From contig JBKOXW010000052.1 of NCBI GenBank assembly GCA_046744115.1, forward strand, positions 1 through 37,208: 37,208 nt of DNA, in the 5' to 3' direction. Below are positions 15,985-26,985 of the stretch, piece by piece. The position numbers and the translations under genes are program-made. Position 1 is the first letter of the stretch; each line of letters starts with the position of its first letter. The notes below the pieces were generated by a model. It had not been told where the DNA came from and made no database searches. It was given only the letters and a program-made list of their open reading frames with translations. This stretch comes from Actinomycetota bacterium. Lineage in GTDB: Bacteria; Actinomycetota; Actinomycetes; Mycobacteriales; CADCTP01.

Positions 15985-17094
15985 TCACCGTCGCCTCCCG
16001 CCGGTCCGCGCTGACCACGGCTCCGCGGGCTGGCGCAGCCGGGGCACCCGACGCGGGTCCACCGCGCTGTCGAGCAGCTGCAGCAGCATCGTCGCGGCGT
16101 GACAGCCCGGGTCGCTGTCCAGCGCCCGCACGACGGCCACCCGGGCCAGTGCGCCGTCGCCGCGCCGCCAGGCCGACCACGCCAGCAGGAACAGCGGCGG
16201 CGCGTCGTAGGGCGCGGGCGCGTGCCGGGCCAGCCACGTCCAGAGCACCGGCGCGGGCATCGGGTTCATCCGCTCCAGCGCCAGCCAGCAGACGTCCCGC
16301 AGGGGAACGTCGACAAGCGCGACGAGCAGCCGCGCCGCCTCGTCGGCATCGAGATCGCACGGCGCCCCCGCCTCGCCGTCCGCCTGGCCCGTCACGAGCG
16401 TCCGGAGGCGTCGCCGCATCACCGCGCGCCAGCCGGCGATGCCGCCCGCCGCCGACACGGCATCGACGAACCCCAGCTCGGCACGCTCCACGGCGCGATG
16501 CAGGCTCGCCTCGACCGCATCGCCGGGCGGCTCCAGGCTCCGCTCCAGCGCCTGCCGGTCGGGAAGGGCGGCCAGTCCGGCGGCGGCGGCCGCGCGGGCC
16601 AGCGGCGACCCGCCCGAACCCGCCGGGGGCACCACATGGCCGTCCGGCGGGCAGCAGGTCGGGTCCACGCACACGTACGACCACAGCCGCCCGTCGGCGA
16701 CGTGCAGCGCGTCGCGCAGAGCGATGCTGGCGTCCGCCAGCGCGTCGCGCAGGCGGAGAAACAGCCGCCACTCCGGCAGCCGGTCACCGGCCTGCACCGA
16801 GCCGCCGTAGACCACGACGACGACCTCGGCGGCACCCTGCCGTCGCAGCTGCGCGGCGAGCGCGCCGGGGAAGCCACGGTCACGGCGGACGTCGGCGAGG
16901 TCGACCCGCATGGTCAGCAGCACCTGCCCGGTCGGCGGCCCCAGAGCGACCACGACCAGGCTTGCCGCTGGGTGGAAACCGAGCAGGTACGGCAGGATCT
17001 CGACCAGGTCGCGCGGGCTGCGCACGCGCAGCGCCGCGGGGGCGGGAGTCGCTGGGACCGGGGCGTCGGCGACGGCGGCTCGCTGCTCGGGCAT
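15985..17094 (-). CDS. DUF4192 family protein
   Basis: LPYLLGFHP..SLV, MRVDL, WSYVC.DP.CCPPDG, RD..W, A..AWRRGDG..A ... A..LL. Confidence 0.85.
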   Translation of the reverse strand: MPEQRAAVADAPVPATPAPAALRVRSPRDLVEILPYLLGFHPAASLVVVALGPPTGQVLLTMRVDLADVRRDRGFPGALAAQLRRQGAAEVVVVVYGGSVQAGDRLPEWRLFLRLRDALADASIALRDALHVADGRLWSYVCVDPTCCPPDGHVVPPAGSGGSPLARAAAAAGLAALPDRQALERSLEPPGDAVEASLHRAVERAELGFVDAVSAAGGIAGWRAVMRRRLRTLVTGQADGEAGAPCDLDADEAARLLVALVDVPLRDVCWLALERMNPMPAPVLWTWLARHAPAPYDAPPLFLLAWSAWRRGDGALARVAVVRALDSDPGCHAATMLLQLLDSAVDPRRVPRLRQPAEPWSARTGGRRR

Positions 17095-17142
17095 GCGGCC
17101 ACGATCTCCGGCCGGCCAGCCGCCGGACAGGGCCGCGGGGCA

Positions 17143-17172
17143 ATCTGTGGACGAGTGTTGCGCCTGTGGACG
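17143..17172 (-). promoter_or_regulatory. Tandem direct-repeat operator (plus strand ATCTGTGGACG-N8-GCCTGTGGACG), copy 1, upstream of DUF4192
   Basis: 22 of 22 conserved positions match 20965-20994, with the same spacing and the same 49-nt offset from the start codon. Confidence 0.65.
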
Positions 17173-17247
17173 GCCGGTTGACAGATCGGCGCGGAGTGGC
17201 TATCTAACGGGCCGGTCCCCGCGGCGAGTGTGTGTCAGGCGACGAGC

Positions 17248-17284
17248 GCTTGTCAGATGCTCTGTGCTTGTCAGCTGCTCTGTG
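17248..17284. repeat. 18-bp tandem repeat GCTTGTCAG(A/C)TGCTCTGT x2, plus a degenerate third TGTCAG at 17233
   Basis: TGTCAG at 17233, 17251 and 17269 (period 18). Confidence 0.7.
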
Positions 17285-17474
17285 TTGACGTCCGCTCGAC
17301 GACCGCGTCCGGCCCCGGGAACACCAGCGCCTCGTGCCCGTCGTCGAACCGGACCAGGTACGGCGGCGCACCGTCCGCCCCGCGGACGTCGACGATCTGA
17401 CCCGTCCGCTCCGGCTGGCCGACCGTGTGACCGTGCACGTGTAGCCGGTCACCGACCATCGCCTGCATGGTCAT
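17271..17474 (-). CDS. DUF1918 family small protein
   Basis: MQA.VGDRL.VHG.TVGQP.R.G.IV.VRG.DG.PPY.VRF.DGHE.LVFPGPDA; GGAGG RBS. Confidence 0.9.
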   Translation of the reverse strand: MTMQAMVGDRLHVHGHTVGQPERTGQIVDVRGADGAPPYLVRFDDGHEALVFPGPDAVVERTSTQSS

Positions 17475-17511
17475 GCACCTCCTCCACGGTGGACCCTCGC
17501 ACCCAAGGGTG

Positions 17512-20500
17512 CTACGGACGGGTCGCGACCGGAAGGGGGGAGACGGGATCGGCGACCTCGACCAGCCGGCACATCGCGTTCACCAAGCGCAGCTCCGCCG
17601 GATTGCGCACGGCCGCGTCGAGCAACCGCGGGCTCGCGACCACGGCGGCCAGCGCCCGGGCCCGGGACACCGCGACGTTCAGCCGGTTGAGGCTGTAGAG
17701 GAACTCGATCCCGCGCGGCGCATCCTCCGCGCTCGAGGTGGCCATCGAGTAGATGACCACCGCCGCCTCCTGACCCTGGAACCGGTCGACCGTGCCCACC
17801 CGCGCGCCCGCCGGCAGCCGCGACCGGAGCCGGCCGACGTGCGCGTTGTACGGAGCGACGACGAGCACGTCGGCCGCGGTCACCGGCCGCAGGCAGCCCC
17901 GCGCGTCCGTCCAGGCGCCGCGGCGCACCTCCCGGTACAGCCCGGCGACGACGTCGACCTCCTCGGTGGAGACCGACCGGTTGCCGGCGTGCTCGACCGG
18001 CACCCAGCGCAGGCCGGCGCCGCGCAGCAGCCCCGCCGCGTCGACCTCCTGCCGGCCGCACGACTCGAGCGCACCGAGCCGGCCGTCGTAGCCGACCTCG
18101 GAGACGAAAGCGCAGATCGCGGGGTGCATCCGCCAGGTCCGGTCGAGGAAGACGCCGAGGTCGGCGGGCAGCGTCGCCGCGCCGCCGAGGACATGCTGCA
18201 GCGCCGAGAGCTCCGCGCCGGGCGGGTGATCTCCCCGCGCCGGCTGGGCGAGCTGCTGTGGGTCGCCGAAGAGCAGGACGTCACGCGCGGCGCCGGCGAC
18301 CGCGGCGACGTTCGCCAGGGACAGCTGGCCCGCCTCGTCGACGACCAGGGCGTCCACGGCGCCGGCCATCTCCTCCCGGGCGAACAGCCAGGACGTGCCG
18401 GCCACCACGTCCACGCTGCCGGCCCACAGCGCCTCGGCCACCACGGCGTTGTCCGTGGTGTGCTCCACACCCGCGGCCGTGGACCGGTCCTCGCCGTCGG
18501 CCTTCTGCAGCGCGCGCACGGCGACACCCTGCTCGGCCGCCGCCGTCATCACCGCGTCCAGCAGGTTCGCGATCGCCTTGTGGCTGAACGCGGACAGGCC
18601 CACCCGCCGGCCGTCGGCCACCAGCGCCAGCACGGTGCGCGCGGCCGCCCAGGTCTTGCCCGAGCCGGGCGGCCCCTGCACGGCCAGCACGCCGCCGGAC
18701 AGCAGCCGGGCCAGCCGGGTCACCGCCGTGACCGGCGACTCGCCGGCACCGACCAGCGGGCCGGCCGGCACGCCGCGCGGTGGTCGGCGCAGCAGGAGGT
18801 CACGCGCGGCCCGGTGGGCCGGCCCCGGCCCGTCGATGCCGTGGTCGCGCACCCACTCCCCCAGCCGTCGCAGCGCCTCCCGCTGGACCCGGTCGTCGAT
18901 CGGCCCGCCCGGGACCAGCGACGGGCAGGCCGGCGGCCCGGTCCGGCTGGCCCGGCGCAACTCCAGCCAGCCCTGCTCGGCGTCGAGGGCCACGACCGTG
19001 CCCTGGGTCCGCTCGGTACGCGGGTCGACGTAGCCGCTCTCACCCACCCGCAGCTTCGTGTCCTGCGGTGGGAAGTCCATCCGCCACACGGTCGACTGCT
19101 TCGTCGCGCGTACCTCGACCGGCGGACCGAGCTGCCCGACCGCGGCCGGGTCGTCAACGAGGGCCTCGTCGCCGAGTTGCAGCCGCCGGAAGTACTCCCA
19201 CCATTCCGGGCGGGCCTCGCGCCGGTGCCAGTCGAGCAGGTCGGCGAGCAGCCGGGTGGCGCGCTCCTCGTCGCCGTCGGCGACGCGCTCGGCCGGTAGC
19301 GGCGCGACCAGCTGGGCGTGCAGGTGCAGCGTCGCCGCCGAGACCTGCACGGCCCGCTCGGACGGCAGCCCGTCGCCGTCCTCCGGGCGCTCGATCGCGG
19401 CGCCGGCGGCCACCGCGTCCGCCCGGCGCTGCTCGAGCCAGTCCCGCAGCCGCAGCGTGGACCGGCAGTCGATCTCGTTATATCGCTCGATCGCGGCCAG
19501 CTCGGTGTCGTCCCCGCTGGCCAGCCACCGCTCGAACGCGACGATGCTCGATGCCGCGTCCGCGACGTCGACGCCGGTGCGGGCCTGCGGGTCGAAGAAC
19601 ACCTCCATCTGCTTGATCGAGTACGAGTCGGTGCCGGCGCGCAGCGCCTGGCGGACCACCGCGTACAGGTCGACCAGCCGACTCCCGCGCAGCAGCCGGT
19701 CCACCTCATCGACCCGGGTGTTGTGGCGGGCGGAGAGCCGGCGCACCGCCGCCGTCTCGTACGGCGCGTAGTGGTAGACGTGCATGCCGGGGTCCGCCGC
19801 CCAGGCGCGCATGAGGTGGTCGATCGTCCGCTCGAACGCGCCCTTCTCCTCGGCCGGCGTGCGCGCCCAGTAGGCGGTGAACCGGCCGCTCGCGTCGCAG
19901 AGGCCGAACAGGTACTCCTGGCCGGCGTCCCCCACGTACGGGTCGCCCTCGAGGTCGAGGAACAGGTCACCGGGGCTCGGCGCGGGCAGCCGCGCCAGTC
20001 CCCGCCGCGGCTCGGGCGGCAGCAACGCGAACGCCGGCCGGCCCGTATCGCGCTGCACCCGCTGCAGGTGCGCCTGCTGGACGAGCCGCTGCCGCGAGGT
20101 CAGGCCGATCCCGTCGGGCAGCAGCGCGGGGTCGGCCGCGGCCAGCGCGGCGAGCGTGCCCACCCCGGCGGCGGTGAGCTGCCGGGCGTGGTCCCGGCGC
20201 ATGCCGGCGACCACGGACAGGTGGTCGTCGGCCCGGCGCTGGGCCGAGCAGCGGGCATCCCACCGGCACTGCGGGCAGTGCCGGACCTTCTCCGGGTAGC
20301 TGGACTCGGTCGAGTCCAGCCACGCCAGCAGGTCGCGGCGCACCCGGCGGGCGTAGGCGGCGCAGTCGTCGAGCCGGAACGGCCGGCGCGCCCCGTCGCC
20401 GGTGACCACCGTGAGCAGCTCCGGCGCGCGCCCCTGCAGTACGGTGAGCCGCTCCGCGTACGTCGCCATCTGCAGCAGCGCGGCCACCTTGATCCGGCGG

Positions 20501-20916
20501 GCCAGCTTGGTGTCGGCGATGTCGTAGGACCAGCCGCCGAGATCGCTCGGCCGGTCCGGCCGCTTCTCCAGGAAGTCGGCGTGCCCGCGCCAGGAGCCGT
20601 CGAAGAACGTCGCCTGGTAGACCACGTCGGCCCCGGCGCGCATCGCGTCGAGCGTGTCCCGCTCCGCGCGGCGCAGGTCGCCGCCGACGTCGATCTCGAC
20701 GATCGTGCGTCCGGCCGCTCGCAGCCGGGCGAGGTAGGCCCGCTCGTGCTCCATGCCGCGGGCCCGCAGCACGGCGAGCGCCTCGTCGTCGGAGTCCGGC
20801 GCCAGCAGCAACCGCCTCGCCACGGCCTGGTCGAGCCGGGTGAGATGGCGGCAGGCCAGGAAGTTCGTCAGGTCGGTGGGACTGACGACCAACCCGCCAT
20901 CGGCGGCGACGTACAC
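17512..20916 (-). CDS. TM0106-family RecB-like (PD-(D/E)xK) nuclease + RNase H-like domain + UPF1/DNA2-like SF1 helicase
   Basis: SPTDL..FL.C, GHADFL..DTKL, HCPQC.W..C, FLDLEGDP, YHYAPYE, SYSIK, YN..DC, QGPPGSGKT, VDEAGQ, GDPQQL, RMHP, PYNA, GTVDRFQGQE, NRLNVAVSRA. Confidence 0.9.
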   Translation of the reverse strand: MYVAADGGLVVSPTDLTNFLACRHLTRLDQAVARRLLLAPDSDDEALAVLRARGMEHERAYLARLRAAGRTIVEIDVGGDLRRAERDTLDAMRAGADVVYQATFFDGSWRGHADFLEKRPDRPSDLGGWSYDIADTKLARRIKVAALLQMATYAERLTVLQGRAPELLTVVTGDGARRPFRLDDCAAYARRVRRDLLAWLDSTESSYPEKVRHCPQCRWDARCSAQRRADDHLSVVAGMRRDHARQLTAAGVGTLAALAAADPALLPDGIGLTSRQRLVQQAHLQRVQRDTGRPAFALLPPEPRRGLARLPAPSPGDLFLDLEGDPYVGDAGQEYLFGLCDASGRFTAYWARTPAEEKGAFERTIDHLMRAWAADPGMHVYHYAPYETAAVRRLSARHNTRVDEVDRLLRGSRLVDLYAVVRQALRAGTDSYSIKQMEVFFDPQARTGVDVADAASSIVAFERWLASGDDTELAAIERYNEIDCRSTLRLRDWLEQRRADAVAAGAAIERPEDGDGLPSERAVQVSAATLHLHAQLVAPLPAERVADGDEERATRLLADLLDWHRREARPEWWEYFRRLQLGDEALVDDPAAVGQLGPPVEVRATKQSTVWRMDFPPQDTKLRVGESGYVDPRTERTQGTVVALDAEQGWLELRRASRTGPPACPSLVPGGPIDDRVQREALRRLGEWVRDHGIDGPGPAHRAARDLLLRRPPRGVPAGPLVGAGESPVTAVTRLARLLSGGVLAVQGPPGSGKTWAAARTVLALVADGRRVGLSAFSHKAIANLLDAVMTAAAEQGVAVRALQKADGEDRSTAAGVEHTTDNAVVAEALWAGSVDVVAGTSWLFAREEMAGAVDALVVDEAGQLSLANVAAVAGAARDVLLFGDPQQLAQPARGDHPPGAELSALQHVLGGAATLPADLGVFLDRTWRMHPAICAFVSEVGYDGRLGALESCGRQEVDAAGLLRGAGLRWVPVEHAGNRSVSTEEVDVVAGLYREVRRGAWTDARGCLRPVTAADVLVVAPYNAHVGRLRSRLPAGARVGTVDRFQGQEAAVVIYSMATSSAEDAPRGIEFLYSLNRLNVAVSRARALAAVVASPRLLDAAVRNPAELRLVNAMCRLVEVADPVSPLPVATRP

Positions 20917-20922
20917 ACCTGA

Positions 20923-20944
20923 ACCGTAGAGAAGGGCTCCGACG
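20923..20944 (-). promoter_or_regulatory. PafBC/RecA-NDp-like leaderless promoter CGTCGG-N10-TACGGT-N6-GTG for the nuclease-helicase
   Basis: One mismatch to TGTCGG-N10-TANNNT; the -10 element sits 6 nt before the GTG start. Confidence 0.55.
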
Positions 20945-20964
20945 AGTCGGCGACGGCCGGCCGG

Positions 20965-20994
20965 ATCTGTGGACGCGACCTCGGCCTGTGGACG
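20965..20994 (-). promoter_or_regulatory. Tandem direct-repeat operator (plus strand ATCTGTGGACG-N8-GCCTGTGGACG), copy 2, upstream of the nuclease-helicase
   Basis: Same architecture and offset as 17143-17172. Confidence 0.65.
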
Positions 20995-24453: not shown

Positions 24454-25344
24454 TCACCGCCGGGCGGTGTGCCGGTCGAGGAAGTCGGCGAGCAGCTCGG
24501 CCAGCCGGCCGGGTTGTTCCTCCATGAGCAGGTGCCCGGCGTCGGGAACGATCTCCACCCGTTCTGCGGTGGGAATGTCCTGAGCCAGCCTGTGCGCCCA
24601 TTCCGGACCGAAGTGCACGTCCCGCCCGCCCCAGACGATCATGGTGGGAGCGGAGATCCGGGTCAGTTCGCCGGCCAGCTCGGCCGTGTGCCTATGGTTG
24701 GCTGGGTCGAGCTGGGCGGCGAGGAATCGGCGAGTGCGGGCGCGGCGGCGGGAGTCGGCGAGGTTGGCCGCGACGTACCCGTCGACCAGCTCGTCGGTGA
24801 GCACTCTGGGGTCGTGCACCGCCTTCGCCGTGGCCAGCGCCCACCGGAACAGCCGGGGCCGGGACCAGGCCCAGAGCACGAACGGCCCCAGCGCCGGCAG
24901 CTGGGTGGCCCTGACGAACGGCCGTTCTTCGGCCGATGGCCAGTTGTCGTAGGCCTCGGCGTCGGTCAGCACCAGCGCGGTGAGCCGGTCGGGATGCTGG
25001 ACGGCGATCAGCTGCGCGACCGCGGCACCGTGGTCGTGGCCGACTACCGCGACCCGGTCCAGGTCGAGTCGGTCCAGCAGGCCCAGCACGGCCCGCACCT
25101 GAGCTGGCAACGTCCAGTCGGCGCCGGGTTGGGTCTCGGTGTCGCCCAGGCCGAGGAGATCCGGCGCCAGGCACCGGAACCGGGTGCTGAGGGGCGGGAT
25201 GATCCGCCGCCAGACGAACGAGGAGAACGGGCAGCCGTGCAGCAGCAGTACCGGCGGCCCGGCACCGGCCTCGAGGTAGGCGACATCCGCGTCGCCCACC
25301 CGGGCGCGCCGCCTGCTCGGCTCGGTGCGGTCAGCCGGTGGCAC
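24454..25344 (-). CDS. Alpha/beta hydrolase with Asp nucleophile (epoxide hydrolase/haloalkane dehalogenase-like)
   Basis: LLHGCP, APDLLGLG, VGHDHG, WGGRD, AGHL..EEQP. Confidence 0.88.
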   Translation of the reverse strand: MPPADRTEPSRRRARVGDADVAYLEAGAGPPVLLLHGCPFSSFVWRRIIPPLSTRFRCLAPDLLGLGDTETQPGADWTLPAQVRAVLGLLDRLDLDRVAVVGHDHGAAVAQLIAVQHPDRLTALVLTDAEAYDNWPSAEERPFVRATQLPALGPFVLWAWSRPRLFRWALATAKAVHDPRVLTDELVDGYVAANLADSRRRARTRRFLAAQLDPANHRHTAELAGELTRISAPTMIVWGGRDVHFGPEWAHRLAQDIPTAERVEIVPDAGHLLMEEQPGRLAELLADFLDRHTARR

Positions 25345-25723
25345 GGCCGGCAGCCGTTTCTTCCAGCAGGCACAGCGCCAGGTCCAGGACGCTGGGCACG
25401 CACGGGTCGGCTATCGAGTAGAAGATCCGGTTGCCGTGCCGGCGGGCCGTCACGATGCGCCGGTCGGCCAGCCGCTGCAGCTGGTTGGATACCGCCTGCG
25501 GGCGCATCCGCAGCTGCTCGGCCAAGTCCCCCACTCGCACCTCACCGCCGCGGTGCAGCGCGTGCAGCAGCCGGAGCCGGGTGTCGTTGCCGAGCACCTT
25601 GAACAGCCCGACCAGCTCGGCGGCCTGCGATGGCGTCAACAGCGGCCGGGTCGCCAGCGGCGGTTTGCCCGCCCTAGCGGCCGGCGACAACTCCGGCCCG
25701 CATCCGATGGGTTCCTCGACCAC
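25331..25723 (-). CDS. ArsR/SmtB family repressor
   Basis: FKVLGNDTRLRLL..L, VGDLA..L....AVSNQL..L, R.G..IFYS; Cys near both termini. Confidence 0.9.
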   Translation of the reverse strand: MVEEPIGCGPELSPAARAGKPPLATRPLLTPSQAAELVGLFKVLGNDTRLRLLHALHRGGEVRVGDLAEQLRMRPQAVSNQLQRLADRRIVTARRHGNRIFYSIADPCVPSVLDLALCLLEETAAGRATG

Positions 25724-25734
25724 ATCACCACTAT

Positions 25735-25750
25735 TACACGACCCCGTGTA
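25735..25750. promoter_or_regulatory. Palindromic operator candidate TACACG-N4-CGTGTA for ArsR autoregulation
   Basis: Perfect 6-4-6 inverted repeat, 11 nt upstream of the ArsR GTG and abutting an AT-rich -10-like region. Confidence 0.55.
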
Positions 25751-25772
25751 CTCGGAGAAGAGCTCATGCGCG

Positions 25773-25848
25773 CTAGTCGGCGTCGATGCTGTTCAGCAGG
25801 TCGAGCAGCTGGCTCGCGTTGCGCTGGGCGAGTCGGAGTAGCAGTTGT
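25773..25848 (-). pseudogene. Displaced original 3' end of the DUF72 paralog-2 gene (att junction)
   Basis: Translates as NCYSD(frameshift)AQRNASQLLDLLNSIDAD*, versus NCYSDYAQTNAQQLIGLLTSIDA in the 31275-32174 gene; 54 of 70 aligned nt identical by hand count. Confidence 0.85.
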
Positions 25849-26060
25849 CTCTCCCGCACCCACCGCTGTGCTCACCAGCTGGGATGCTGTCGTCGGCGAT
25901 CACCACCCGCAGCGGCCGGCGCTGCTCGCCCCACTGCACGTCGTGCACCAGCATCCGACCCAGCAAGCGTCGTCGACAACTAGGAGCGGTGCGGGGCCCG
26001 ACCGGAGGCGTTCCTGCCCAACAGGCCGTGTCCTGAGCCGGGCAGATAGATCAACCATCT

Positions 26061-26105
26061 TGGGCTCTCCGGGTAGGTCCGAACCAGCGACCCGACGATT
26101 AACAG
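26061..26105 (-). pseudogene. Degenerate 3' half of tRNA-Asn(GTT); att-site relic
   Basis: Minus strand CTGTTAA-TCGTC-GGGTC-GCTGGTTCGGACCTACCCGGAGAGCCCA: anticodon loop, T-loop GGTTCG and CCA end. No D arm or 5' half. Confidence 0.65.
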
Positions 26106-26159
26106 GCGGATGCGCAGGCCTGTCACAGCCATCACACACTGCCTGAGCAGGCATCGGGA

Positions 26160-26221
26160 CTGTCAACGCTGCCCGCCGTGCCACCCGGTGACGGCGATTC
26201 GTTGACAGATCCGTTGACAGA
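26160..26221. repeat. Integrase arm-type-like repeats: CGTTGACAGA x2 plus an inverted CTGTCAACG
   Basis: Direct copies at 26200-26209 and 26212-26221; inverted copy at 26160-26168. Confidence 0.55.
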
Positions 26222-26316
26222 CCGTCCACAGTGGATGATCTAGTGACACTACCCGCAGACTCATCACCGGCCCTTCTTCGCGCGTTCGCGGCACACACAG
26301 CTTGGGTCGCACTTCA

Positions 26317-26491
26317 TACGGAGGCGCCGGGTATCTCGCCGGAGGGGCTGCGCGCCAAGGTCGGAGCGGTTCACATTCCGCTCGGCGAGCTCGTCCAGGC
26401 CTTCCTCAATGCCGGCTTTCAACTCGAGCGCTTCGAGGAGGTCGGAGAGCGGCTGTACCCGCCGATCATTGTGCTGCAGGCCTGCCGGTGA
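26317..26491 (+). pseudogene. C-terminal fragment of a class I SAM methyltransferase-like protein
   Basis: GLRAKVGAVH.PL..LV.AF..AGF.LERFEE resembles methyltransferase C-termini; no motif I; GTGA-coupled to the HIT gene. Confidence 0.5.
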
Positions 26492-26985
26492 GGGCGCATC
26501 GAACACGTCGGGTGGACTTCGAGGCGATTCGCGCGCATCTCGGTGGGCGTTGCTTCATCTGCGAGATGCTCGCCAGCAATCCGGAGTTCCGCCACCATGT
26601 GGTCTACGAGGGCGAGCTCGCCGTCGCGTTCCACAACCGGTATCCAGTGCTGTACGGCTACGTGCTCGTCGCTCCAACGGAGCACCGCGAGCAAGTCAGT
26701 GGCGACTTCCGCCGCGACGAGTACCTCGCCCTGCAGGGAGTCGTCTACCTGGTCGGCGAGGCCGTCCGCCGGGTAATCCGAACTGAACGGCTCTACATCC
26801 TCAGCCTGGGAAGCCAGGACGGAAATCGGCACGTGCACCGGCACATTGCGCCGCTGCCGCCGGGCGTGCCGTTCGACCAGCAGCAGCTCGCGGTGCTCGA
26901 CTCGAACCGTGTTCTCGATCTCGGCGACGGCGAGATGGTCGACCTCGCGACGGAGCTGCGCCGCGCAATCAAAGAGTCGACGTGA
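26488..26985 (+). CDS. HIT family protein
   Basis: CFIC, YP..YG..LVAP..H, SLGSQ.GNRHVHRH histidine triad. Confidence 0.82.
   Translation: MRAHRTRRVDFEAIRAHLGGRCFICEMLASNPEFRHHVVYEGELAVAFHNRYPVLYGYVLVAPTEHREQVSGDFRRDEYLALQGVVYLVGEAVRRVIRTERLYILSLGSQDGNRHVHRHIAPLPPGVPFDQQQLAVLDSNRVLDLGDGEMVDLATELRRAIKEST

Follow-up and report, generated by a model that had tools for sequence, protein, structure and literature searches.

Why should two genes on one contig of an actinobacterial genome be preceded by the same pair of short DNA words, at exactly the same distance from their start codons? The question is raised by a stretch of 37,208 nucleotides (contig JBKOXW010000052.1 of assembly GCA_046744115.1, from an Actinomycetota bacterium of the order Mycobacteriales), the whole of which is called here "the window". 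On its minus strand lie a gene for a protein of family DUF4192 and a gene for a nuclease-helicase, and upstream of each stand two direct copies of a box of the form G-Y-Y-R-TCCACAG. The answer favored here, to which we give as a whole a probability of roughly 50%, is that the box pair is a clade-wide promoter element of competence and recombination genes, and that a protein bound at the two boxes, most probably DnaA, would activate those genes.

The window is contig C197 of a draft genome, G000 (3.5 Mb, 72.6% G+C, 79% complete). Reading of the sequence and a pattern search place box pair 1 (ATCTGTGGACGAGTGTTGCGCCTGTGGACG) at 17143-17172 and box pair 2 (ATCTGTGGACGCGACCTCGGCCTGTGGACG) at 20965-20994. 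On the plus strand these read ATCTGTGGACG-AGTGTTGC-GCCTGTGGACG and ATCTGTGGACG-CGACCTCG-GCCTGTGGACG, respectively; on the minus strand, which is that of the genes, both read CGTCCACAGGC-N8-CGTCCACAGAT. All 22 of the 22 bases outside the spacers are identical in the two pairs, the 8-nt spacers differ, and the period is 19 bp in both. At each gene, 49 nt lie between the pair and the start codon (17143 to 17094 for DUF4192, 20965 to 20916 for the helicase), and the pair covers positions -78 to -49 from that start. Each gene also has a -10-like hexamer 6 nt before its start codon. Before the ATG at 17094 this is GATCGT (17101-17106, minus strand), which begins 39 nt past the final G of the proximal box; before the GTG at 20916 it is TACGGT (20923-20928, minus strand). 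The individual boxes are CCGTCCACA and TCGTCCACA at the first site and TCGTCCACA and GCGTCCACA at the second. An earlier, sequence-only reading of this DNA had reported just this arrangement: an exact pair with a 19-bp period and unlike spacers, a common 49-nt distance, a -10-like hexamer before each start, and one or two mismatches to the actinobacterial DnaA-box consensus TT(A/G)TCCACA (TTGTCCACA). All of this is borne out, the last at every box of the two pairs.

Two resembling words on one contig might, of course, be an accident. With up to three mismatches allowed, the whole window contains 2 matches to the pair, and 100 dinucleotide-preserving shuffles of it contain none. The single 9-mer with one mismatch, in contrast, is not enriched in the window, where it is observed 23 times against 17.8 expected. 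Thus, the pair, not the single box, is the signal.

Nor is the pair confined to the window. G000 holds 15 matches to TCCACA[GA]-N10-14-TCCACA[GA], every one of them with a period of 18 or 19 bp. Of 41 related genomes, 38 have the narrower pattern TCCACAG-N11-13-TCCACAG. Among the 15 other genomes of family f1, 14 hold 10-27 copies each and the last (G015, 62% complete) holds 5; the reversed pattern, used as a control, occurs 0-1 times per genome. Genomes of family f12 have 0-2 pairs. Among 300 further genomes sampled from the phylum, more than two copies are found only in the window's order and in a few genomes of its class; in the others of that sample the pattern is absent or present once. 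Two of these single copies (G124, G152) were examined, and both lie in the dnaA-dnaN spacer, that is, at oriC. A relaxed first scan also caught pairs inside coding sequence (C39, C115), which are excluded from the later counts.

Which genes, then, stand behind the pairs? A survey covered 110 sites in seven genomes of four families, namely G000 and six relatives (95 listed sites), of which two belong to the same family (G001, G009) and four to three other families (G023, G020, G038, G034). At each site, the first downstream open reading frame (ORF) supported by the G+C content at third codon positions (GC3) was clustered with the ORFs of G000 and assigned by Pfam and NCBIfam calls; 96 sites have such an ORF and 14 do not. 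These ORF calls are a GC3-based heuristic made with no gene finder, and some of the distances below 39 nt probably reflect miscalled starts.

In G000, the genes so identified encode RecA; a paralog of SSB; UPF0102 (YraN), followed by ComM (Mg_chelatase) and DprA; a ComF-like phosphoribosyltransferase; a protein with SAF and RcpC domains (CpaB-like); an ATPase with an FHA domain and an EccC/FtsK-like part; peptidases of types M23 and S51; a small membrane protein; and the DUF4192 protein and nuclease-helicase of the window. The comEC gene of G000 lies at a contig end, which puts the comEA promoter outside the assembly. Across the survey, YraN (for yraN-comM-dprA) and the SSB paralog stand behind a pair in all seven genomes, and DUF4192 and ComEA (SLBB+HHH_3) do so in five. 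A DUF4244 Flp-like pilin, a TadZ/ParA-like protein, the SAF/RcpC (CpaB-like) protein and RecA follow with four genomes each, and the nuclease-helicase and a ComF-like protein (by Pfam) with two each. Members seen in one genome only include an ATP-dependent DNA ligase and a RecQ-like helicase, along with Hen1, DUF222 proteins and two XRE regulators; also among them are plainly unrelated ones, namely an aconitase, a LysE exporter, an E1 dehydrogenase and a subtilase.

The content that would be expected of a competence regulon (comEA/comEC, comF, dprA, the SSB paralog, recA and a pilus) is thus found behind pairs in at least 2 of the 7 genomes. The conserved core behind the pairs is the gene set for natural transformation and homologous recombination, with a Tad/Flp pilus. 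The sequence-only reading had suspected an unrecognized regulon, and had suggested asking whether genes for repair, recombination or uptake are enriched behind the pairs. They are: the pair stands in the same orientation and at the same distance before yraN-comM-dprA, the SSB paralog, recA and comF, and the suspected regulon gains CpaB-like and FtsK/EccC-like genes in G000 and comEA, the Flp pilin and TadZ in relatives from other families.

Conservation at individual genes can be followed further. Upstream of yraN in named organisms, a pair is present at 44 of 80 loci and at least one TCCACA at 76 of 80. The loci with a pair include those of Blastococcus, Geodermatophilus, Trujillonella, Micromonospora, Actinoplanes and Planosporangium, and also those of Nocardia, Rhodococcus, Prescottella, Saccharomonospora and Kibdelosporangium. 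A single box stands at this place in Frankia, Kribbella and Kitasatospora; in Nocardioides there are two, 27-29 bp apart. Arthrobacter koreensis lacks a pair and shows one off-consensus TCCACA (CCTCCACAC), and the loci of Cellulomonas and Georgenia among the 80 have no box. A pair precedes 19 of 30 loci for DUF4192 homologs (L008, from the unpublished genome G022, is one of the 11 without it) and 3 of 12 loci for the nuclease-helicase, the window included (G000, G001, G003). The sequence-only reading had named random placement across the genome, or absence at orthologs, as grounds for giving up its proposal; random placement is not seen, and at DUF4192 orthologs the pair is largely kept. Its view that both genes of the window are co-regulated is supported for DUF4192; the helicase carries the element only in G000 and genus g2.

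What kind of element is this? Aligned on the 19-bp period, 96 sites give a distal box G-Y-Y-R-TCCACAG-G-C and a proximal box G-Y-Y-R-TCCACAG-A-T-C. A single T is conserved 16 nt beyond the proximal box, at about -35. Further on, an A (47 of 96) at +40 and a T (51 of 96) at +44 define a hexamer nAnnnT that starts 39 nt after the proximal box, and both window hexamers, GATCGT and TACGGT, fit it at the same distance. Start codons lie 49-52 nt past the proximal box at 25 of the 96 sites, and exactly 50 nt past it at 14, both window genes included. The alignment and the start-codon distances agree, therefore, in giving the pair the fixed promoter position expected of a shared cis element.

The simplest reading of these distances is that many of the promoters are leaderless, with the start codon as +1. 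This, in turn, would put the -10 at -12 to -7, leave a vestigial -35, and center the boxes near -54 and -73. For recA and ssb, the same -10 position is followed by a leader of 35-65 nt. The location of the boxes near -54 and -73, together with the poor -35, suggests that promoters with the box pair depend on an activator. The sequence-only reading had called the placement of its two sites activator-like, and the same geometry is now found at the aligned sites.

Two other readings of the window sites were considered and set aside. A structured RNA or tRNA was rejected, the window having no match to an Rfam family and no tRNA. A near-consensus promoter of sigma-70 type, TTGACA-N17-TATCTA, lies at 17178-17206 on the plus strand, 5 nt beyond box pair 1 and antisense to the neighboring gene for a DUF1918 protein. 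The idea that the boxes serve this rightward promoter was dropped, as it runs antisense into DUF1918 and is not common to the other sites.

With the element, its geometry and conservation, and the genes behind it shown by observation, the question becomes one of mechanism. Here, the proposal is that two direct G-Y-Y-R-TCCACAG boxes, usually 19 bp apart, would act as the upstream promoter element of a regulon. Bound upstream at the two boxes, a protein would activate promoters that are weak and poor in the -35, as a class I activator does. This protein would most probably be the replication initiator DnaA, and the expression of genes for DNA uptake and recombination would then follow the state of replication. 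The core of the regulon would be yraN-comM-dprA, the SSB paralog, comEA(-comEC), comF, recA, the Flp pilin, TadZ, the CpaB-like protein and DUF4192, this last serving as the actinobacterial counterpart of the competence protein RadC. In G000 and its nearest genus, the regulon would also have recruited the RecB-like nuclease-helicase, with DUF1918.

Why DnaA? It is the leading candidate, with about an even chance of being the binder, because the boxes match the DnaA boxes of oriC over 13 positions. In G000, the dnaA promoter and the dnaA-dnaN spacer (C201) hold six R-TCCACA words (GTCCACAG-type), and G follows in 5 of the 6, against 38% genome-wide. Of 52 boxes that flank dnaA in five genomes, 27 have G at -3, 35 have T at -2, 40 have T at -1 and 37 have G at +7; one 13-mer, GTTATCCACAGGC, is found again at oriC in a distant family. 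Among the regulon boxes, for their part, 64 of 96 have G at -3, 67 of 96 have G at +8 and 56 of 96 have C at +9. Their 96-site consensus, Y-Y-R-TCCACA, agrees with the DnaA-box 9-mer, position 3 of the distal box being G in 68 cases and A in 21; a choice between G and A at this position is the classical degeneracy of the DnaA box. The extended word is found at the genome's own oriC and dnaA promoter as well, with flanks that agree with those of the regulon boxes. A paralog with DnaA domain IV was rejected as the binder, DnaA itself being the only protein with that domain found in G000 (79% complete). Elsewhere, DnaA of Escherichia coli, acting as a transcription factor, prefers pairs of closely spaced sites (PMC11317965, in excerpt), and competence in the pneumococcus is stimulated by an over-supply of DnaA (PMC8394987, in excerpt).

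Several points weigh against this reading, and these are best set out together. The binding of DnaA at the pairs is predicted from sequence, as are the transcription starts, and the transformability of the carriers is a prediction from gene content. In mycobacteria, strong DnaA sites, mapped for M. tuberculosis by in vitro pull-down and for M. smegmatis by ChIP-seq (sequencing after chromatin immunoprecipitation) during exponential growth, amount to five regions only, namely oriC, rpmH-dnaA, a site upstream of dnaB, Rv0010c-11c and Rv3843c, with no competence gene named in the excerpted text (PMC7738170). The multi-copy regulon is limited to part of one order, yet DnaA is universal. The layout is strict: the repeat is direct, overwhelmingly with a 19-bp spacing, its distance to the promoter is fixed across the 96 sites, and its flanks are specific to the box, GC at the distal and AT at the proximal one. 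Regulatory boxes for DnaA vary in place and orientation, and such a strict and fixed layout is more typical of a dedicated activator. The boxes at the dnaA promoter of G000 are 12 bp apart, not 19. Some targets concern no DNA process (the M23 and S51 peptidases, an aconitase, a LysE exporter, an E1 dehydrogenase, a subtilase). Last, 4 of the 15 sites in G000 (C43:4544, C81:6561, C161:7406, C167:10575) have no convincing downstream gene.

The strongest rival keeps the regulon and its geometry and changes only the reader: the boxes would be recognized by a dedicated activator, and would merely look like DnaA boxes. We consider this possible, at odds clearly below even. By analogy, such an activator might be a response regulator of the OmpR/PhoB type or a small protein of the BldC/HTH_17 type, which binds direct repeats head to tail; the sites of MtrA and PhoP are direct repeats of GTCACAG-like words. 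Such a protein is favored by the constant orientation, spacing and promoter distance, by the unlike flanks of the two boxes, by the confinement of the multi-copy regulon to part of one order and by the mycobacterial DnaA maps, and regulators of XRE type are among the regulon members in G009 and G038. In Micrococcus luteus, moreover, comEA/EC expression changes when a small, essential HTH_17 protein or a response regulator is mutated (PMC8467076, in excerpt).

Against this, the sites point to no candidate gene. Every one of the 8 HTH_17 genes of G000 lies on a contig with no box pair, and the two XRE proteins cluster neither together nor with any protein of G000. The most faithful member, DUF4192, might for that reason have been an autoregulator, but was rejected as the regulator: its predicted fold is RadC plus tetratricopeptide repeat (TPR), not that of a DNA binder, and no DUF4192 was found in G007 and G008, which keep 9 and 13 pairs. 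An HTH_17 protein beside the CpaB-like gene, as in M. luteus, was rejected too, the neighbor in G000 being an FmdB-type zinc-ribbon gene. As the yraN locus of Arthrobacter lacks the pair, the regulators known from M. luteus may work in another circuit. A dedicated activator would also have to mimic 13 positions of the oriC boxes, among them the R at position 3, and the 19-bp period is unsuited to dimers of the OmpR type, which use a period of 10-11 bp. DnaA as the binder is kept as the leading candidate, and as no more than that. The claim of the sequence-only reading that one factor, DnaA or some other binder of direct repeats, acts at both genes is carried forward as to the shared element, its orientation and its distance, with the choice of factor standing at the even chance given above.

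A second rival accepts DnaA and reverses its role. Here, the pairs would be sites at which DnaA acts negatively, spreading over the promoter, or reservoirs that titrate it, as datA does, with no part in transcription and only by chance located in intergenic DNA. The identity of the boxes with those of oriC fits this as well, as do the few sites with no downstream gene, and clusters of DnaA boxes outside oriC are known in Bacillus subtilis and E. coli. A reservoir, however, would not hold a fixed distance and orientation to the -10 and the start codon, nor track one functional gene set across families, and the poor -35 argues for dependence on an activator, although boxes at -54 and -73 might conceivably repress. 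This rival we regard as unlikely. The weakest explanation, that the two window copies, 3.8 kb apart and identical at all 22 bases outside the spacers, are a recent local duplication or a small mobile repeat with no regulatory role, is highly improbable, since their spacers and flanks differ, the same boxes stand on 13 other contigs before unrelated genes and upstream of orthologs at 35-45% protein identity, and no terminal repeats or transposase are associated with them.

If DnaA-dependent activation is taken at its widest, DnaA would be the master activator of the natural-transformation machinery across a large part of the Mycobacteriales, covering the Geodermatophilaceae, the Micromonosporaceae, the Pseudonocardiaceae, the Nocardia/Rhodococcus group and uncultured relatives. 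This extension is offered tentatively, as falling just short of even odds. Were it true, a DnaA-box pair at -54/-73 would have the role played elsewhere by the com-box, the CRP-S site or the ComK box. The state of replication would switch on DNA uptake, Tad pili, DprA/ComM/SsbB/RecA and the RadC-like DUF4192, and many soil actinobacteria with no known transformability would be predicted to become competent under replication stress.

What might DUF4192 contribute to such a regulon? The gene at 15985-17094 (minus strand) encodes 369 residues (PF13830, E 3e-69), and its ATG at 17094 is the first start codon in frame. A model made by AlphaFold2 from 18 homologs, of which one belongs to the unpublished genome G022, has a pLDDT of 87 and a pTM of 0.83. 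In this model, residues 21-144 superpose on Chlorobium tepidum RadC (2qlc_A) with a VIA Z of 11.3 and a root-mean-square deviation of 3.0, 120 of 126 residues being aligned, which is nearly the whole chain. RadC is the top structural match (Foldseek probability 1.00, target-normalized TM 0.65-0.76). Residues 225-350 are modeled as TPR-like repeats, which is a common arrangement. The protein is thus, as modeled, an N-terminal domain of RadC-like (JAB/MPN) fold joined to a C-terminal TPR-like domain.

The likeness to RadC does not extend to sequence family or to metal binding. The protein matches only PF13830, with no Pfam match to RadC (PF04002). JAMM-type metal sites consist of His/His/Asp; in the 18-sequence alignment, residues 21-144 have no invariant His or Asp and show no such motif, the His of GFHP being replaced in 5 of 18 sequences. 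What is conserved instead is a GRWWSY-C-x(n)-CCP patch and a basic tail; the C-x(n)-CC(P) patch, the tail and the added TPR-like domain set the protein apart from RadC. Among 41 related genomes, PF04002 was found in none and DUF4192 in 34. RadC is a usual component of the competence regulons of Firmicutes and Pasteurellaceae. Because of the fold match, the competence-type regulon and the finding of no RadC in the 41 relatives, DUF4192 looks like the actinobacterial counterpart of RadC, by predicted fold and context rather than by family membership. The suggestion of the sequence-only reading that DUF4192 works in DNA metabolism gains from the same fold match and from the pairs at its loci.

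Two observations on its homologs may be added. In genus g3, the homologs (L018-L022, L025, L027) match only residues about 190-355, the TPR-like half. In several genomes of that genus, the homolog is preceded by a second box pair and a 321-residue gene with no Pfam family (L180).

The nuclease-helicase of the window (17512-20916, minus strand; 1134 residues) joins a RecB-like nuclease of the TM0106 family (RNase_H_2) to a superfamily 1 helicase (AAA_11/AAA_12/AAA_30), and it scores 261 bits against the curated cut-off of 97.45 for TIGR03491. Its GTG start at 20916 is backed by a homolog in G001 that begins MYVAVDGGLVVSPTDL and by the TIGR03491 match, which runs from residue 14. A gene for a 67-residue DUF1918 protein (17271-17474, minus strand; PF08940, E 6.5e-30) follows 37 nt after the helicase stop, is preceded by GGAGGAGG, and is probably co-transcribed with the helicase. 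An 18-bp tandem duplicate, cttgtcagatgctctgtg / cttgtcagctgctctgtg, followed by ttgac, lies at 17249-17284, where it overlaps the 3' end of the DUF1918 gene, stop codon included. Membership of the helicase in the regulon appears recent and local, being confined to genera g1 and g2.

The helicase promoter has a further word, TCGTCGGAG (20937-20945, minus strand), 8 nt upstream of its -10. At the matching position, the recA promoter of G000 reads TCGTCGGGG-N8-TAGCGT, and the two promoters share TCGTCGG(A/G)G 8 nt upstream of the -10. These words resemble the "-26" element of PafBC, which we take to be TTGTCRGTG-N8-TANNNT (letters unconfirmed). Helicase and recA match it at 7 of 9 positions; the other regulon promoters gave no match, though no systematic scan was made. 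Besides its box pair, the region upstream of the likely GTG start of yraN at locus L088 (G000:C205, about 2105-2140) contains an exact TTGTCGGTG, which resembles the same element. A -26 motif specific to PafBC does exist (PMC11804915). Because they carry both a box pair and a -26-like word, helicase and recA may answer to two systems.

Variants of the arrangement occur in the window and beyond it. A single exact CTGTGGACG box lies at 26223-26231 on the minus strand (region about 26195-26237), in the spacer between the ORFs at 25325-26146 and 26302-26985 (HIT domain); on the minus strand it is followed by a direct repeat, TCTGTCAACGGATCTGTCAACG, with an 11-bp period. Three boxes in a row, again with a 19-bp period, are found at L130 (G023:C9:24046-24090) and L172 (G020:C10:51188-51232). 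One of these triples precedes a phosphomannomutase-like gene (judged by eye), the other an ORF that clusters with Flp-like pilins. Two back-to-back pairs in genus g3, some 70 bp apart, lie between a gene for a 75-residue Flp-like pilin and a tadZ-like gene and form a divergent double promoter (L091, G009:C94, 2855-2952; also L092 and L093).

Of the four sites in G000 that lack a convincing downstream gene, all (C43, C81, C161, C167) adjoin convergent gene ends instead, and at C161 a second, weaker pair follows about 200 nt downstream. The C167 pair is kept in G001 (L120), adjoining a small convergent zinc-ribbon gene; because it is conserved there beside a convergent gene, it may drive an antisense or small RNA. 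Also in G001, an ORF with the word MRCPYCRHSDSRVVDS, NrdR-like by eye, has just before it a pair whose period is 20 bp (L105, G001:C1:668304), which hints at a link to nucleotide supply in that genome.

How much of this is new? A literature search found no published description of the element; its coverage was incomplete, and this is, of course, no proof that the element is unpublished. Used as a search word, GTCCACAG returned only primer-type matches among the matches listed. Competence regulons tied together by one promoter element are already known, and so is DnaA at paired boxes. New here are the element itself, the phylum in which it is found and a gene set that contains a Tad pilus, and possibly the use made of the DnaA box.

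The control of competence in high-GC Gram-positive bacteria is an open question, and the element gives a first handle on it in this group. Through one recognizable element, the uptake pilus is connected with ComEA/ComF, DprA/ComM/YraN, SsbB and RecA in many genera open to cultivation, Micromonospora, Geodermatophilus, Blastococcus, Nocardia and Rhodococcus among them. It therefore predicts which actinobacteria may be naturally transformable, which would have practical value for the genetics of antibiotic producers. It also offers a first functional context for DUF4192 (RadC-like), for DUF1918 and for the TM0106-type nuclease-helicase. Should DnaA be the binder, horizontal gene transfer would be coupled to replication in a new way.

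It is instructive to compare the element with systems already described. A DnaA regulon for replication stress exists in B. subtilis. Closer in form are the paired DnaA boxes of E. coli at nrdAB, dnaA and mioC (PMC11317965, in excerpt), which resemble the present sites in having the same box over 13 positions, in pairs, upstream of promoters of genes for DNA metabolism. That likeness is one of sequence. Unlike the E. coli sites, those described here are strictly direct, 19 bp apart, fixed at -54/-73 of what appear to be leaderless promoters and present in 10-27 copies per genome, and they precede genes for uptake and recombination rather than for nucleotides and replication.

The PafBC/RecA-NDp promoters of mycobacteria (PMC11804915) belong to the same order and control recA and repair genes independently of LexA, as the regulon described here would do; the word TCGTCGGnG-N8-TAnnGT at -26 of helicase and recA may be a counterpart. 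The PafBC element replaces the -35, whereas the box pair lies further upstream, has another sequence, and stands at most of its promoters with no -26-like word beside it.

In its genes, the regulon comes closest to M. luteus, where a transformation machinery of Tad pilus and comEA/EC has been shown genetically (PMC4322843; PMC8467076, in excerpt). The Flp/Tad genes and the comEA/EC machinery are common to both (see also PMC12849477), and the SAF/RcpC protein Mlut_14650 and the FtsK/SpoIIIE-like protein Mlut_07490 have counterparts behind pairs here. M. luteus belongs to another order, and the sole yraN locus covered from its family, the Micrococcaceae, that of Arthrobacter koreensis, has no pair. 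The papers on M. luteus name no promoter motif (PMC4322843; PMC8467076, as far as the excerpt goes; PMC12849477, in which the word "motif" occurs 0 times), and the most recent describes the competence signals and regulatory cascade as still to be identified (PMC12849477, 2026).

In its logic, last, the regulon resembles those held together by the sigma-X com-box in streptococci, by CRP-S sites with Sxy (TfoX) in Pasteurellaceae and Vibrio, and by ComK boxes in Bacillus (PMC8467076, in excerpt). There, as here, comEA/EC, comF, dprA, ssbB, recA, a pilus and a RadC or RadC-like protein are tied together by one fixed element. The element described here differs from these in its sequence, in being a direct repeat upstream of the -35, in belonging to another phylum, and in commanding a Tad/Flp pilus where the others command a Com or type IV pilus.

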